From Eledone cirrhosa (taxonomy: Eukaryota): 28,208 nucleotides of DNA. How positions within the stretch are numbered: position 1 is the stretch's first letter; every line of letters begins with the position of its first letter. Below are positions 4,147 through 27,706 of this stretch, in pieces. A model generated the notes under the pieces. The model did not search any database, had not been told where the DNA came from, and saw only the letters and a list, made by a program, of their open reading frames with translations. Location of the stretch: positions 1 to 28,208 of the forward strand of contig CAXHJY010000496.1 of the NCBI GenBank assembly GCA_964016885.1, given 5' to 3'. The translations under genes were made by a program, and so were the position numbers.

Positions 4147-4514
4147 CTATCTATCTATTCGCTTTTCAAATCAAGTGGTATCACTGTTTAAGTCTCACTG
4201 CCGATACCTTGGGTTAATTTCTTCAGGTATTGCTTGCGGTTGAGCAATGCCTTGTGAAAAAACGTGGTAAATGGAATTATTGTGTAAGTGGTTAAGTATA
4301 CCAAAGACATTTGCGCCCGTTAACAGAATTCTCAGGGATATTCAGTGTGGCAATTCAGCACTGACAATTCCGGCTTTGAATTATAGAGATCGTTCAGTAG
4401 ATGAGCTTTCAAAACATATTCCATCTACTCGATCTCGCTCAAAATGAAATGGAAAATAACACGGTGTAGGATCTAACCGTAGGCGAAGAGCTGGAACAAA
4501 TAACTAGACAGTTT

Positions 4515-4700
4515 AATCATGCTTTCTGATTTAGGTATAAGGCCAGCAATATCTTTGGCAGGAAGGAAAAAATCGATTAAATCGAGTCCAGTGCATTACT
4601 GGTACTTTATTTTATCGACTCCTTAAGGACGAAAAACAAAGCTATCTTCGGCGGGATTTGAACTCAGAACGTAAAGGGCCGTAATTAAATGCCACGAAGA
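4515..4700 (-). mobile_element. tRNA-derived SINE (main family)
   Basis: Plus strand has TTACTGGTACTTTATTTTATCGAC...GGCGGGATTTGAACTCAGAACG. Confidence 0.8.
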
Positions 4701-4710
4701 ATATTGCAAT

Positions 4711-4928
4711 AATTATGGCTTACGATTTAGGCAGAAGGCCAATAATTTTTGGCGGTGAGGAAAAGGTTGATTAAATCAACCCCCAATGTTTTGCTGGTAC
4801 TTTATTCTAACGACCTCCTAAGGATGAAAGGCAAAGCTACCCTCGGTGGGATTTGAACACAGAACTTAAACTTATGTAACTATATGCTTGCAAAGCGCTT
4901 TGTCCAACGCTCAACCGGTTACTGCCAA
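4711..4928 (-). mobile_element. tRNA-derived SINE (main family), tandem to the previous copy
   Basis: Same central block and B-box, ending in CTGCCAA (A-box on the minus strand). Confidence 0.8.
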
Positions 4929-6467: not shown

Positions 6468-6469
6468 TT

Positions 6470-6636
6470 ATGGGAAAAGAGAGGACCCCGACGGCTGACC
6501 TCCGGCCGTTTCGTCAGCTAGATCCGAACAGCCGTCGGGGTCCTGACTCTTATCCTATTACCCACTCTACTACCCTAAGTATTGAGTACTCTGGCATGTT
6601 ATGGTCCACCTGGTTTCTTACCACACTTTCAATGTT
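6470..6636 (+). mobile_element. Fold-back family A (A2), internal deletion in the right arm
   Basis: Left arm GGACCCCGACGGCTG...TTTCGTCAGCTAGATCC, shortened right arm, then the family tail ATTACCCACTCTACTACCCTAAGTATTGAGTACT...CTTACCACA. Preceded by (TA)n. Confidence 0.9.
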
Positions 6637-7351: not shown

Positions 7352-7549
7352 ACGAAGGAAATGTGGTAAGGAACCAGGTGGACCATAACGCACCAAAGTA
7401 CTCAATACTTAGGGTAGTAGAGTAGGTAATAGGAACGAGTAGGACCCCGACGGCTGAGCTCAAGCCGTTTCGACGGCTAATTCTGGACATTCGAGTCCAG
7501 AATTAGCCGTCGAAACGGCTTGAGCTCAGCCGTCGGGGTCCTACTCGTT

Positions 7550-7554
<5 letters not shown>
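7351..7554 (-). mobile_element. Fold-back family A (A1), intact copy
   Basis: Perfect 60-bp arms at 7429-7488 and 7495-7554, 6-nt loop, 78-bp unique tail, (TA)n on both sides. Each arm carries the hammerhead 3' half GAAAC-GGC-loop-GCC-GTC-GGGGT. Confidence 0.92.
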
Positions 7555-7584
<30 letters not shown>

Positions 7585-7589
<5 letters not shown>

Positions 7590-7792
7590 AAAAGAGTCAG
7601 GGCCCCGACGGCTGAGCTCCGGCCGTTTTGACAGCTAGATCCGAACTGTTTGGATCTAGATGTCGAAACGACCGAAGCTCGGCTGTCAGGGTCCTGACTC
7701 TTTTCCTATTACCCACTCTACTATCCTAAGTGTCGAGTACTCTGCTGCGTTATGGTCCACCTGGAATCTTACCACACCTTCTTTCTTTCTTT
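7585..7792 (+). mobile_element. Fold-back family A (A2), diverged full copy
   Basis: Imperfect palindrome centred on GATCCGAACTGTTTGGATC, followed by the family tail. (TA)n on both sides. Confidence 0.9.
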
Positions 7793-9490: not shown

Positions 9491-9620
9491 AAGGCGGAAA
9501 ATTGTCAGAGTTGTAAAAACGTTGGATAGAATGTTTTGCAGGATATTCTTTCCAACTTTCCGAGTTCAAATCCCACCGAGGTCAACTTTACCTTTCGTCC
9601 TTTCGAGGTCAATAAAAAAA
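9491..9620 (+). mobile_element. tRNA-derived SINE (main family), 3'-truncated
   Basis: GAGTTCAAATCCCACCGAGGTCAACTTTACCTTTCGTCCTTTCGAGGTCAATAAA. Confidence 0.75.
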
Positions 9621-10330
9621 TAGAAATAGTGTCTTCGACGCCAGGAAATACGGTAATTTTCGCGAGCAAGCTGTCTATTCCGTTGAACGAAAAACTAAAA
9701 CTATCATCATTGAAACTGACGAACGTCCGTTCCATTCATCTCTTAACAAAATAAAGCAGTTTTTTTTTTCCCCCTCATAAAATTTCTTTTTCTCCTTTTT
9801 TTAATTGCTAGTTCACAGGTATTTCGTTTGAAATATATCTATGAGGTTACTCTCTGGCAGGTGTGTTTAAATACATATTCACAGACGAGGCGTTTTTTGA
9901 ATTCTTGGAAACAATTACATGGTGAAACTTTATCTCGTTTTTCTTTTGGAACAATTTCATAACGAAGTTTCATCTTCGTTTCTTTCTTAATATATCATTG
10001 CGGAATTCTATCCTAATTTCTTTTAAAACTATTTCTCTATGCAATTCCACTTGCATTTCCTCCTACCTACAACATATTTTTCTTGTTGTTCTTGGTGATG
10101 TAGTTGTTTAGCGCTAAATTAAAATTTTAATTGAGATTTTTTTTTTCGATTTTTATTGCGTGGATATTTCATGGAAAATAAGATTTCATTGAAACATTTT
10201 GTATGTTTGTTTGTTTTTATTACAATAATCCCGTGGGGGTGTTGTTTTAACCGTCGTAAGTGTGTGTGTGTGTGTGTGTGGGGGGGGGGATACTTTCTTG
10301 TTTTTTATTCACATAGAGGGAAAAATAGAC

Positions 10331-10869: not shown

Positions 10870-11081
10870 GACAATGATTTGTAGTATAGCCACAAGGCCA
10901 GTAATTTGGGGGCAGGGGAAAGTCGATTAAATCAACCCCAGTGCATTATTGGTACTTTATTTTATCAACCCCGTAAAGATGAAAGGCAAAGTTAACCTCG
11001 GTGGGATTTGAACTCAGTCCGTAAACGGCCGTAACTCTATGCTACAAATCATAGCGTCGACGCTCTACCGATTCTGCCAAT
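10870..11081 (-). mobile_element. tRNA-derived SINE (main family), near full length
   Basis: A-box TGGCAGAATCGG, B-box GAGTTCAAATCCC, central block and 3' GGCCTTGTG segment are all present on the minus strand. Confidence 0.88.
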
Positions 11082-11083
11082 CC

Positions 11084-11194
11084 AATAATAATAATAATTG
11101 TTTCTATTTTCGGCACAAGATCAGCAATTACCCCAGTGTATTACTGGTACTTTATTTTATCGACCCCGTAAGGATGAAAGGCAAAGTTAACCTC
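11084..11194 (-). mobile_element. SINE (main family, short variant), 5'-truncated, with (ATT)n tail
   Basis: Central block is well conserved. Abuts the previous copy head to tail. Confidence 0.85.
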
Positions 11195-14114: not shown

Positions 14115-14309
14115 GGGTGCATACGTAACGTGATTAAAGCTTTTAAAATTAATTATTTCCTAATTTTAACTGATACGAAAATATAGACCTTAAATCGTGA
14201 ATATGCACCGGAGTTAAAGGTAAATACATACGGTTTCACCTAATTTGTGTTTGTGCGGGTGAACATAATATAGTACGTTACACATACACACACACACATA
14301 TATACATGT

Positions 14310-14496
14310 AACGAAGGATGTGCGGTAAGGAACCAGGTGGACCATAGCGCTCCAGAGTACTCATTACTTTGGGTAGTAGAGTGGGTAATAGGTAAAGAGT
14401 CAGAACCCCGACGGCAGAGCTCAAGCCGTTTCGACAGCGATTTAGGTCCAGAAATAGCTGTCGAAACGGCTTGAGCTCTACCGTCTTGACTCTTTT

Positions 14497-14500
<4 letters not shown>
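14310..14500 (-). mobile_element. Fold-back family A (A3)
   Basis: Tail on the left, palindrome centred on GATTTAGGTCCAGAAAT, (TA)n on the right. Confidence 0.9.
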
Positions 14501-14538
<38 letters not shown>

Positions 14539-18164: not shown

Positions 18165-18305
18165 AGGAAAAGAAATCGAAAATGCAACTGGAGCCTTTCT
18201 AAGAATATTTATTTGTTTCCTTTACCGATTTCACAGTTCTTATGCTTTTCAATAGTAGAAATGAGATGCAGAGTTTGTGGTTTTTCAATGATTATTTGTT
18301 CCTTT
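18165..18305 (-). mobile_element. Decayed PLE-like fragment with minimal hammerhead motif
   Basis: Minus strand 18223-18252 reads TTGAAAA-GCA-TAAGAAC-TGT-GAAAT-CG-GTA. Follows a (TA)n tract. Confidence 0.45.
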
Positions 18306-18312
18306 ATATATT

Positions 18313-18430
18313 AATTGTTTCTACTTTTTGGCACAAGGCCACCAATTACCCAGTGCATTACTGGTACTTTATTTTATCGACCCCGTAAGGATGAAAGGCA
18401 AAGTTAACCCCGGCGGGATTTGAACTCAGA
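18313..18430 (-). mobile_element. SINE (main family, short variant), 5'-truncated
   Basis: Well-conserved central block and B-box. Confidence 0.88.
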
Positions 18431-18450
18431 CCTTATATATTAAAATTAAA

Positions 18451-20580: not shown

Positions 20581-20756
20581 TCTCTGGTATGGCGGCTAGA
20601 CAAGCACTAGCATGGTTGACTGGGTTTTACCTTTATGCATATGTTTCAATAGAATTGGAATGTCGTGAAGTGGGAGAGTCTATTTAGATAGTTTAAAATC
20701 TATTTTCTTTGTGCTTTCGACTGAGCATATGAATATATATATATATATATATATAT

Positions 20757-20889
20757 GAACGAGTAGGACCCCGACGGCTGAGCTCAAGCCGGCGGGGTCC
20801 TACTCGTTCCTATTACCCACTCTACTACCCTAAGTATTGAGTACTTTGGTGCGTTATGGTCCACCTGGTTCCTTACCACATTTCCTTCG

Positions 20890-20891
<2 letters not shown>
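20757..20891 (+). mobile_element. Fold-back family A (A1), hairpin centre deleted
   Basis: Tail nearly identical to that of the 7351 and 27511 copies. The palindrome is collapsed at CAAGCCG|GCGGGG. Confidence 0.92.
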
Positions 20892-20919
<28 letters not shown>

Positions 20920-20921
<2 letters not shown>

Positions 20922-21095
20922 CACAACGGAATTGTGGTAAGGAACCAGATGGACCATAACGTACCAGAGTACTCAAATTTTAGGGTAGTAGAGTGGGAAA
21001 TAGGAAAAAGTATGAGCCCGACGGCAGAGCTCAAGCCGTTTCGACGGCTAATTCTGTCCAGAAATAGCCGACGAAACGGCTTGAACTCTGCCGTC
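20920..21095 (-). mobile_element. Fold-back family A (A3), short arm ends at GTC
   Basis: Tail on the left, palindrome centred on TTCTGTCCAGAA. The right arm stops at CTGCCGTC. Confidence 0.9.
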
Positions 21096-21222
21096 CCGGG
21101 TTCAATCGGGGGTAACCACAGTAAGTAAGGTACTCAATACAAAGCAGAGTATAAATATTTAATATAGAAATGACTTCTACAGGACTAGAACTGTTTGATT
21201 CGGGAGAAATCATCAGGAAGAT
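21094..21222 (-). mobile_element. PLE-like tail of a different family fused to the family A copy
   Basis: CCCGGGTTCAATCGGGGGTAACCACAGTAAGTAAGGTACTCAATA matches the reverse complement of 4100-4145. The right boundary is approximate. Confidence 0.6.
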
Positions 21223-21249
21223 ATATATATTCATATATATCATATATAA

Positions 21250-21347
21250 GGGGAAAGTTGATTAAATCGACCCCGGTACATTACTGGTACTTTATTTTAT
21301 CACCGTAACGACCCCCGTAAGGATGAAACGCTAAGCTAACCTCGGCG
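21250..21347 (-). mobile_element. SINE (main family) fragment
   Basis: Central block with a small internal duplication. Confidence 0.8.
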
Positions 21348-21527
21348 ATTTGGGGGGAGAGGTAAGTCGATTAAATCGACCCCTGTGTATTACTGGTACT
21401 TTATTTTATCAACCCCGTAAGGATGAAAGGCAAAGTTAACCTCGGCGGGATTTGAAATCCGATCATATATAGCGCTGTAACTCTATGCTGCAAAACATGG
21501 CGTCCGACCCTCTACTAATCCACCGCC
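21348..21527 (-). mobile_element. SINE (main family), tandem to the previous copy
   Basis: Central block, B-box-like segment and head region. Confidence 0.82.
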
Positions 21528-22010: not shown

Positions 22011-22029
22011 TATCTATAATACCCACCAT

Positions 22030-22168
22030 AGTTACGTCCGTTTACGATCTGAGTTCAAATCTCGCCGAGGTTAACTTTGCCTTTCATCCTTACGGGGTCG
22101 ATAAAATAAAGCACCAGTAATGTACTGGGTAATTGCTGGCCTTGTGCCAAAAGCAGACACAATTATTA
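22030..22168 (+). mobile_element. SINE (main family, short variant)
   Basis: GAGTTCAAATCTCGCCGAGGTTAACTTTGCCTTTCATCCTTACGGGGTCGATAAAATAAAG...GGCCTTGTGCCAAAA. Confidence 0.88.
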
Positions 22169-22389
22169 TATCTATAAAATATCTTTAGTGGTACAGATGA
22201 CATTTATCCAGTAGCTTCCCTATTCCCCTTTTCAACTTTAAACTCTTCATCTATGCTATACCGCCTTAAGTCTTTATGAAACACGGTACCACACAGTGCA
22301 AAAGACGTTCGGGCTACTGATATTTCGGGAGAAGAAAATTTGCTGTACTTTGAAGGTTCAACTCAACAAAAAAAAAAAAATACCCCTCA

Positions 22390-22940: not shown

Positions 22941-23136
22941 ATTTAGTTATAAAAGTGACATATACAGGTATTTAAGTCTCGTTGGCTTCAGCACCCCACC
23001 TTTTTCAGCCTCGATGAGATGGGATGTATTACCCAACGAAAATTAAGTACCTGTATATGTCAAATTGTAACTAATAATACTTAACTCGTCCATTGGACTG
23101 AGTACTCTCACCCTAGCATATTTCTACCATACCTTT

Positions 23137-23194: not shown

Positions 23195-23277
23195 ATATAA
23201 GGTTATATATATAATAAGGTTATCAATGCCAGTACCGGTTGTATCTCAGCGCACTCCATAATATATATATATATATA

Positions 23278-23757
23278 ATAAAATATTAAAAAAATAATGG
23301 ATAAAACAATGAAACAGTTCCTTATATTAAACAAAAAAAAAATCCTTATTTAACGATCGTTTCTAGGATATATATGTATTAGAATTGGCATGCATATTCA
23401 ACAGATCTATGTACAAAATTATACAAAATTATACAAACTATCAAATTTAATATACATACCAACACATATATATGCCGTCTTCAGAAATAATTATTTCTGT
23501 TGAATATGCATGCCAATTCTAACACATATATATCCTAGAAACGATCGTTAAATAATGAACTTTTTTTGTTTAATATAAGGAACTGTTTCATTGTTTTATT
23601 CATTATTTTTTTAATATTTTATCTTGACTCTGTATTCCGTTTATCTTTCACCGAAAGTGATTTTTGAATGCATCTCTTCTTTCCATGATATCCGGATTAC
23701 ATTGAGTTCTTCATACGGATTGGACACTACCGTAAACTCTTGGTAGATTTATCTACA
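23278..23757 (+). mobile_element. Large fold-back element (family B): ~128-bp inverted arms plus 135-bp tail
   Basis: Near-identical inverted arms at 23278-23405 and 23496-23622, unique tail at 23623-23757, (TA)n on both sides. Confidence 0.85.
23346..23490 (-). ncRNA. Candidate complete type I hammerhead ribozyme with long stem II
   Basis: TTATTT-CTGAAGA-[~114 nt whose ends pair: GGCATATATATGTGTTGGTATGTATATT with AATATGCATGCCAATTCTAATACATATATATCC]-GAAAC-GATC-GTT-AAATAA. 6-bp stem I and palindromic stem III. Confidence 0.7.
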
Positions 23758-23793
23758 TATATATATAATATATATATTATATATATATTATAT

Positions 23794-23992
23794 TAAAAGA
23801 TTCAAGGACCCCGATGGCTGAGCTCCGGCCGTTTCGACAGCTAGATCCGAAAAGTTTGGATCTAGCTGTCGAAACGGATGGAGCTCAGCCGTCGGGGTCC
23901 TGACACTTTTCCTATTACCAACTCTACTACTCTAACTATCGAGTACCCTGGTGCGTTATGGTCCATCTGGTTCCTTACCACACTTTCTTTGT

Positions 23993-24142: not shown

Positions 24143-24744
24143 TACCTGTATGCTCTGGAGTAGCTTGCTCCTCTCCCACCTGCATCAACTATGAAACATT
24201 CATTAGAAAAACATCAAATGAGAACACCTGCACAGTTCAAGGACATGGCGTTTCTTGTTAAAATAAACAATAAATTAAAAGAAAGAGATTGAAAAACAGA
24301 TAGAAACCTTTAAGAAGATATAATTTACATAATATGAACGAATACAAAACATTATATGACATTGCTGAAATATTAATTAAAATGATTCATAAATAGATTT
24401 AAGGAGATAATATATATAATATGAATATATATATATAAAAAAATGTCAAAGCAACAGATATCGTGTATTGAGAAATTCAATCTACCATATTGAATATTTC
24501 TATTGGGTGTGCTGCATCTCTGGTTCATTTTATTATCTGACAATATGTGTAATATTACACTTATATGCTATAGAATTCTTGACCTCAGAAGTCAGTCCAA
24601 ACGACTTCGCACAGCAGATGCTTAACAAACATTCTTACTCACAAAAATCAGGTCTTACGCTTGAAAAGTTCGCCAGTGTTACATAGATTATGTTACGACC
24701 GATGTACGTCTCGCAATTGTATAAAATATTTTGTATTTCAGGTA

Positions 24745-24862
24745 CAGCACCAGCAAAATATTTTCCAAGGGAAGAGATATGTCGATTAAATCAACCCCAG
24801 TGCGTTATTGGTACTTTATTTCATCGACCACTTAAGGATGAAAGGCAAAGCTAACCTTGGTG
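24745..24862 (-). mobile_element. SINE (main family), 5'-truncated
   Basis: Central block present. Confidence 0.8.
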
Positions 24863-24889
24863 AGAAGACACTCGGTATGAAATGGAAAC

Positions 24890-24953
24890 AAAATAATGTT
24901 TCTACTTTAAGCACAAGGCCTGCAATTTGAAGGGGAGGGGAAAGTCGATCGAC
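24890..24953 (-). mobile_element. SINE (main family) 3' fragment
   Basis: GTTTCTACTTTAAGCACAAGGCCTGCAATTTGAAGGGGAGGGGAAAGTCGAT. Confidence 0.7.
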
Positions 24954-24984: not shown

Positions 24985-25300
24985 TTATTAAAATAACAGA
25001 TTAAAGTTTAAGCAAAGAATCGCTGCTTTCACCCTTAACGGGATCTTCAGAAGATCCCGTTAAGGGTGAAAGCAGCGATTCTTTGCCAATAAGAAACACA
25101 CGCACCAGTTGCTTTCACTTCAACTTATTTTAATAAATTTATAAATTTAGGAATTTATAAATTTCCGGTTGGTTGGTTCCACAACCAGATGGTTGTTTAT
25201 ATATTGTCAAAGTTCTTTCGTCACACATTCTGTGACCTCTTCAGTGACTGGGGATTCTTTTCTTTGTTTTTGTGCCTCTCCTTTGTTCTGTCCTACGCCA
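24985..25300 (+). mobile_element. Fold-back element (family D) with perfect 37-bp palindrome
   Basis: Arms at 25012-25048 and 25050-25086 with a 1-nt spacer. The minus strand across the centre reads CTGAAGA-TCCC-GTTAA-GGGT-GAAAG. The downstream region is homologous to 15652-15835. Confidence 0.8.
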
Positions 25301-27510: not shown

Positions 27511-27706
27511 AACGAAGGCAATGTGGTAAGGAACCAGGTGGACCATAACGCACCAAAGTACTCAATACTTAGGGTAGTAGAGTGGGTAATAGGAACGAGT
27601 AGGACCCCGAAGGCTGAGCTCAAGCCGTTTCGACGGCTAATTCTGGACTCAGAATTAGCCGTCGAAACGGCTTGAGCTCAGCCTTCGGGGTCTTACTTGT
27701 TCCTAT
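27511..27706 (-). mobile_element. Fold-back family A (A1), full copy
   Basis: Nearly identical to 7351-7554, with a shorter apex (TTCTGGACTCAGAA). (TA)n on both sides. Confidence 0.92.

Follow-up and report, generated by a model that had tools for sequence, protein, structure and literature searches.

A hammerhead-bearing fold-back in Eledone cirrhosa as a Penelope-like element fragment whose two arms were probably primed at two fixed sites

The window analysed here, i.e. the whole 28,208-nt stretch of contig CAXHJY010000496.1 of Eledone cirrhosa, has on its minus strand a complete hammerhead motif of type I (23490-23346), which lies within a head-to-head fold-back centred at 23490/23491. Read along the minus strand, this motif comprises stem I (23490-23485, 5' TTATTT, paired with 23351-23346, 3' AAATAA), the CTGAAGA core (23484-23478), a 114-nt stem II hairpin with paired (AT)n that is common to the whole family (23477-23364) and GAAACGATCGTT (23363-23352), which holds the second part of the core (23363-23361), the palindromic stem III and the GTT triplet; the predicted cut falls at 23352/23351. 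The self-complementary stem III region AACGATCGTT (23352..23361, minus strand) would form a stem of 2 bp as a monomer and is predicted to form a 10-bp duplex as a dimer. An earlier note on this DNA had recognized the core, the palindromic stem III and the 114-nt stem II with its (AT)n on the minus strand, and we confirmed their coordinates. Element positions are given relative to the C of CUGA, which places the predicted cut at +132/+133.

The hammerhead is part of Arm 1 (the 'site-1' arm; 23278..23491, minus strand), a terminal-repeat segment of a Penelope-like element (PLE) that runs from -7 to an upstream fixed end (+206), where it adjoins (TA)n. Its boundary at -7 (23491), which is the 5' boundary of the family and the likely RNA start, lies within the 18-bp palindrome CAGAAATAATTATTTCTG at the head-to-head junction (23482..23499, centre 23490/23491). 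Beyond a 4-nt insert (23492-23495) that precedes a TCTG microhomology, the plus strand resumes at that TCTG (23496) as Arm 2 (the 'site-2' arm; 23496..23756, plus strand), which extends from inside stem II (about +77 to +79) to a downstream fixed end (+339), is devoid of the CUGAAGA core and adjoins (AT)n. This arm alone bears a 'tail' of ~133 nt, the segment between the two fixed outer ends (23623..23756, plus strand). The (TA)n target microsatellite flanks the fold-back on the left (23260..23277) and on the right (23757..23795). The inversion right at stem I and the resumption of the plus arm inside stem II, both described in the earlier note, are thus found at these positions. Of four hammerhead-like matches in the window only the motif at 23490-23346 has a stem I of at least 6 bp; two further hammerhead-like motifs, at 25244-25210 and 18542-18490 (both minus strand), have a 4-bp stem I. 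No hammerhead family appeared among the 150 listed of 180 Rfam matches, these being microsatellite and hairpin-driven miRNA matches, and neither a tRNA nor a real ORF was found in the window. The locus is an ordinary dead, short, ORF-less fragment of a known kind of element. Elsewhere in the window there is a perfect 75-bp inverted repeat at 25012-25086 and, just upstream of the fold-back, a diverged one at 22943-23074 with arms 72% alike.

Folding the reverse complement, a check proposed in the earlier note, gave a predicted three-way junction for the 162-nt hammerhead fragment (-39.2 kcal/mol, z = -3.64). The 6-bp stem I reported before has its six pairs at this locus, but in uninverted copies of the family stem I has 10 bp, the window copy being without the 7th pair. 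The type I core (CUGANGA, GAAA, UH) and the three helices are present, and conservation of the core among homologues, on which the earlier note had made its reading depend, was found in three subfamilies that differ only at N7 (A/G) and H17 (U/A). Stem II measures 114, 104 and 99 nt in these subfamilies, making its length a family-wide trait. Covariation of the stems, named there as well, is also seen: in 14 hand-picked copies from the three subfamilies 96.7% of 517 stem cells pair, and compensatory changes affect two pairs, U-A to C-G in stem I and A-U to G-C in stem II, along with several G-U/A-U swaps, but the count of compensated pairs did not beat a shuffle control (437/500), three related subfamilies affording few independent covariation events. 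At the base of stem II all three have C opposite A in place of G10.1-C11.1, and the canonical loop I/II tertiary contact is not evident with the 114-nt stem II. Such C-A and also U-U oppositions at the stem II base occur in PLE hammerheads of the PMC8557442 supplement.

When downstream sequence is included, the monomer hammerhead fold lies 10.3 kcal/mol above the predicted minimum for the window copy and 4.9-10.2 kcal/mol above it for four others. The stem III palindrome is predicted to form a duplex at -11.8 kcal/mol in a dimer, in line with the dimer action proposed in PMC4209133 (here and throughout, what is said of published work refers to the consulted parts of the papers cited). We take the hammerhead to be a conserved, putative ribozyme, probably slow and dependent on dimerization or on a protein, that went uncut in the templates. 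The window copy is no better a ribozyme candidate than other copies. Its designation in the earlier note as the best candidate for an active ribozyme stands within the window but fails at the level of the family: 6,842 copies genome-wide keep the same 3' core (a pattern that serves only as a count of intact cores), stem I is weaker here, and in a read-through of the window copy with its inverted arm the hammerhead fold is predicted to cost 66 kcal/mol. Among the genomic loci examined there are also many further families of type I hammerheads, whose stem II gaps span 12-88 nt (e.g. L048, L046, L063, L192 and L200), many of them with a C-A or U-U mismatch at the stem II base; hence 99-114 nt is the long end of the range. 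One literature search returned no report of a natural hammerhead with a long stem II, which is weak evidence of absence. As 99-114 nt falls outside the usual descriptors, such ribozymes are probably undercounted.

A 26-nt anchor downstream of the motif has 5,444 exact copies in the genome as against none for its reversed control, so that the family match is not due to chance and the element is present in at least 5,444 copies. Searching the same genome at the DNA level, with 40 of 499 candidates scored, yielded 58 matches, the majority at 93-97% identity. Uninverted copies run upstream through an AATAAA into a microsatellite-rich 3' UTR and an ORF. At one locus (L261) two hammerheads enclose a full unit of 6,599 bp; its ATG stands at +494 and is followed by an ORF in the same sense, in which inspection revealed FDID/YRDD motifs of a reverse transcriptase (RT) followed by a C-terminal GIY-YIG endonuclease (..SYIGAT..RF..H); this ORF is frameshifted near residue 743. 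DKT (SDKTGNLY) replaces DKG, RVRWRAY represents an RWR variant of RWK, the linker carries CxCX5C (CNCRNKANC), and CRLC and CNH in the C-terminal frame provide a CxxC and a CxH around conserved E and N residues, with no CCHH. While Pfam and PDB sequence searches of the ORF gave no significant match, its Atlas neighbours bear RVT_1, GIY-YIG and HTH_animal domains. The element prefers (TA)n as its target, nearly all of 100 arm ends adjoining AT repeats, and a locus at C1:43.87-43.88 Mb together with 31 divergent pairs displays the PLE-type arrangement of a partial tandem with terminal repeats, an inverted 5' copy and a tail at one end. By motif match to the published definition of the clade (DKT, RW(K/R), CxCX5C, no CCHH, C-terminal GIY-YIG; PMC8557442), the element is assigned to the Hydra-clade PLEs, which agrees with the earlier suggestion of a PLE-type hammerhead with a palindromic stem III. 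A Neptune-clade label was dropped, as the linker has CxCX5C rather than CX2-5CxxC and CCHH was not seen. A non-LTR retrozyme, i.e. short head-to-tail tandem repeats with a hammerhead in each (bioRxiv 2026.07.22.740005), was also rejected, given that the short copies occur as head-to-head pairs or singly and the tandem unit is of 6.6 kb and contains an ORF. The 3' UTR of ~3-3.5 kb consists mostly of (TA)n, (TG)n and mixed microsatellites (L261:3300-6900, L033:6050-8880), and the element thereby spreads its own target type of sequence.

The outer ends of the copies follow a strict rule. All of 100 sampled arms end at a fixed site, 58 at +206 and 42 at +339, and in 30 of 31 divergent pairs within 13 kb there is one arm of each kind (P = 7e-9), the exceptional pair being an internal repeat that runs on into the ORF. 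In 24 pairs the two arms differ from each other by 1.1 changes, as compared to 5.2 from other copies. Among 28 adjacent pairs, the window's included, in a set that kept only arms ending at +206 or +339, every pair is mixed; 17 have equal inner ends and 11 unequal ones, and in all 11 of the latter the +206 arm reaches further 5', so that the tail-bearing arm is the shorter. In eight of the 28 the arms do not overlap at all, the +339 arm consisting there of tail sequence only. A second, selected set gave 33 mixed pairs out of 33 resolved, with one unresolved, and a polarity of 6:1 in its seven unequal pairs, L004 being the single pair of opposite polarity. The junctions carry varied inserts and both arms have been truncated independently. 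An assembly fold-back artefact was rejected in view of the several positions at which the arms differ, the occurrence of junctions on many chromosomes and a contig of another organism with the same junction.

The inner ends were examined in an unselected sample, namely the first 100 anchor matches on contig C1, not chosen for a junction. In this sample 36 arms continue into the 3' UTR, 45 end at most 25 nt upstream of the core and 19, mostly truncated, are without a recognisable core; among these 45, the end falls precisely on -7 in 19 and lies between 0 and -8 in 39. Genome-wide, the match to the element is lost in 889 of 2,588 arms at -8, in contrast to 174 of 2,762 at -7 and 62 of 1,699 at -9. 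Comparison of junctions across genomic copies, another check that had been suggested, thus established the stem I junction as family-wide: the exact palindromic centre of the window type recurs at 194 loci, and the same junction at -7 was seen in the contig of another organism. Position -7 is the A of TCATTATTT and of a TCA kept in the three subfamilies, which we take to resemble an initiator consensus. At -8 the foreign base is G in 231 of the 889 arms, whereas G was counted in 9 of the first 100 arms for -7 and in 5 of 62 for -9 (P < 0.001). At 30 loci with such a G none is a substitution in an uninverted copy; 16 are without a source in the partner arm, 13 are explainable by the partner and one is ambiguous. 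In subfamily C the palindromes are centred at the same place with no clear G signal (6 G of 27), its G's at -8 being mostly explained by the partner arm or by substitution. An extra G derived from the cap marks full-length L1 5' ends (PMC11702581); in the Penelope of Drosophila virilis the hammerhead is preceded by a distant start, from which an intron separates it (PMC2377424, PMC4209133). From the step in the matches and the added G, -7 is likely to be a capped RNA start and not a ribozyme cut. As to expression, the contigs X1, X3 and X8 yielded nothing across the hammerhead, contigs being in any case unable to reveal a start.

The exact junction of the window is unique in the genome; its layout is shared by locus L277, where a reiterated TATTTCTG insert at the junction is followed by a jump into stem II. 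Reiterated templated inserts of 10-14 nt were noted at the head-to-head junctions of L184, L187, L197, L202, L207 and L277, and resemble polymerase-theta-type or telomerase-like repeat synthesis.

We consider it probable that the paired arms arise by two reverse transcriptions, one primed from each strand of the cut (TA)n target, and that these begin at two fixed positions of an uncleaved sense RNA likely capped 7 nt before the core. The enzyme, probably as a dimer, would nick both strands of the (TA)n target; a leading RT would prime at +206 and a trailing one at +339, each proceeding to the 5' end of the RNA unless it stalls, and the two cDNA 3' ends would be joined by microhomology with short templated inserts. 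Where the arms do not overlap, neither can have been copied from the other, which indicates that both were primed on RNA. More frequent stalling of the trailing RT would account for the polarity of truncation and suggests one shared RNA; the usually full overlap of the arms requires either that a strand be displaced or that two RNAs be used. The short ORF-less palindromes would come from priming on the transcript's 5' repeat, and the long copies from priming on a read-through 3' repeat. For the window copy, the leading cDNA would have reached -7, the trailing cDNA would likely have come to a halt within stem II, at about +78, and a snap-back of 8 nt (TATTTCTG) may have supplied the TCTG used in joining.

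The earlier note had read the junction as a snap-back followed by a template jump. For the few junction bases this is a fair description, as the near-twin L277 suggests, but it is not supported as the origin of the large fold-back, whose arms begin at two different fixed sites. An origin of the entire fold-back from single priming with snap-back, or from self-priming on an antisense template as proposed for the Penelopes of rotifers (PMC3846280), with the endonuclease resolving the copy at the second site and leaving a one-end tail (such resolution was proposed in PMC8557442), would account for mixed ends and near-identical arms, and perfect palindromes are common, as snap-back would give. Nevertheless, we regard it as improbable: the eight pairs that share no sequence between their arms contradict it unless each represents a later deletion, the tail-bearing arm is the shorter one in all unequal adjacent pairs, and neither the varied inserts nor the independent truncation of both arms fits. 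A further alternative concerns the window copy alone: the original insertion could have been a full palindrome in which both hammerheads were intact, and a deletion between two TCTG repeats could afterwards have removed 76 nt from the plus arm. The junction does keep the exact 18-bp centre of the 194 loci, TCTG flanks the missing part, and the uniqueness of the junction in the genome is as a later deletion would have it; on the other side, it is the site-2 arm that has been shortened, which also holds for the other unequal pairs of the unselected sample (10 of 10), and L277, built in the same way, carries a reiterated insert of a kind that simple deletion could not produce. The layout of L277 and its insert favour stalling and a short snap-back over later deletion, which we hold to be a possible, if somewhat doubtful, history of this one copy.

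The nature of -7 is a separate question within the same two-primer origin, since it could be a poly(A)-site cleavage end near AATAAA-N7-CA, or an RT stop at stem I. AATAAA indeed stands 7 nt before CA in three subfamilies despite a varying spacer, and about half of the -8 G's have another possible source. Against a poly(A) end, a cut after CA would leave the U at -6 first, whereas the step includes the A at -7 (889 vs 174), and 7 nt is short for a poly(A) site, the usual distance from signal to site being 10-30 nt; an RT stop does not predict an excess of G. We therefore judge either of these to be unlikely and prefer the capped start. That ribozyme cleavage itself makes the fold-back junctions is very improbable. 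The peak of junctions at stem I lies 140 nt upstream of the cut site and so does not record cleavage, and just one of the 100 unselected arms begins at the cut site, ambiguously. When 30 of 557 loci were chosen for a break at the cut, 27 proved to have an unbroken hammerhead in which position 17 is A or C, and three to be junctions; extrapolated to the 557, and set against the 6,842 intact cores, this amounts to ~0.8% of arms at the cut site, about what 7-nt microhomology gives. In favour of cleavage, 12 loci genome-wide join a site-1 arm to a site-2 arm that starts at the cut via 7-nt stem I complementarity; these junctions (L131 and L148 among them) may be occasional relics of cleavage or may reflect microhomology alone. 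Snap-back priming of the cDNA of a cleaved RNA through stem I was rejected, no such junction being present among the 100 unselected arms. In the genomic copies there is no excess of truncation at the cut, and by this measure the templates were uncleaved.

Among the features of the element, the hammerhead, the (TA)n target, the one-sided tail and the inverted copy all have precedents in PLEs (PMC8557442). With the Hydra-clade PLEs described by Craig et al. 2021 (PMC8557442), such as Hydra-1_Obim, it shares the RT with a C-terminal GIY-YIG, DKT, RW(K/R), CxCX5C and lack of CCHH, and also the (TA)n target, a sense type I hammerhead in the terminal repeat, an inverted 5'-truncated copy and the one-end tail. 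By eye, Hydra-1_Obim in the supplement of that paper resembles the Eledone element and is a distinct family; two exact peptides and one DNA motif of the latter are absent from the same supplement. The Eledone element differs in its 6.6-kb unit with a microsatellite-rich 3' UTR (Hydra-clade elements are <3 kb), in a tail of ~133 nt rather than 30-40 nt and in a stem II of 99-114 nt, compared to stems of 3-7 bp and loops of 3-10 nt in the Hydra hammerheads of the supplement. Metazoan PLE hammerheads (Cervera and de la Pena 2014, PMC4209133) are likewise of type I with a short palindromic helix III predicted to act as a dimer, and have low in vitro activity, but their helix II is of 6-8 bp, in contrast to a hairpin on the scale of ~50 bp with a C-A base here. 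That study noted pairs of hammerheads on opposite strands 100-700 bp apart, which the pattern of this family would also explain.

The closest biochemical parallel is Poseidon PAc of Anolis (Frangieh et al. 2024, PMC11167929), for which both strands of the target are cut and extended in vitro, with two internal RT start sites delimiting the tail; a dimer is predicted, uncleaved RNA is the substrate and the ribozyme is protein-assisted. In the consulted part of that paper we found no derivation of the inverted copy, the pairing of one arm of each kind, the truncation polarity or the cap-site junction. L1 twin priming (PMC11702581) offers a second parallel, sharing a second RT from the other end of the target, an inverted segment, internal end-joining and a cap-derived G. 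However, L1 has a variable second priming site and segments with hardly any overlap, whereas in the Eledone element both sites are fixed and the arms usually overlap fully; moreover, unlike in L1, nearly every paired insertion uses both priming sites. The origin of PLE inverted repeats and of the one-sided tail was named as open in PMC8557442. The one-of-each rule, the polarity and the cap-site junction were not found in the open-access PLE texts consulted. In the Eledone copies the genome keeps a record that can be counted; it speaks against simple snap-back and broadens the in vitro result of 2024 (PMC11167929) to a per-event rule with polarity. Generalizing, one might tentatively propose, with chances a little under even, that twin priming is obligate in PLEs: a single RT-endonuclease dimer would prime both target strands from one capped and uncleaved RNA, on which it uses two fixed sites, the leading cDNA would be displaced by the trailing RT, and the ends would be fused. 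Inverted terminal repeats, one-sided tails and palindromic junctions would then share a single mechanism; here the transcript would open with a hammerhead that has a structurally constrained stem II of exceptional length and could decap its own mRNA. The family-level pattern and the very long stem II have testable consequences for PLE insertion, in a reconstituted reaction and in cap mapping.

A second, unrelated repeat family in (TA)n has the same head-to-head layout of a long and a short arm, with copies in the window at 6469-6630, 7352-7554, 7585-7790, 14299-14501, 20753-21103, 23795-23992 and 27512-27706. Its 28 pairs comprise 18 long/short, nine long/unresolved and one unresolved/short, with no long/long or short/short pair, and the shorter-ended arm is favoured in seven of eight unequal pairs. 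It possesses GAAAC and hairpins, with no CUGANGA in the part examined, and its 5' end lies at an AGTCC.. start; it is probably another PLE or a non-autonomous partner. A chimera at L141:1480-1715 joins a short arm of this second family to a subfamily B hammerhead arm and is then interrupted by a SINE-like repeat; the joining of two families shows that the two cDNAs need not derive from one RNA. Finally, dispersed copies of yet another repeat, probably a SINE, are found in the window at 1139-1333, 4514-4928, 9555-9621, 10873-11194, 18305-18439, 21248-21515, 22028-22176 and 24737-24949.
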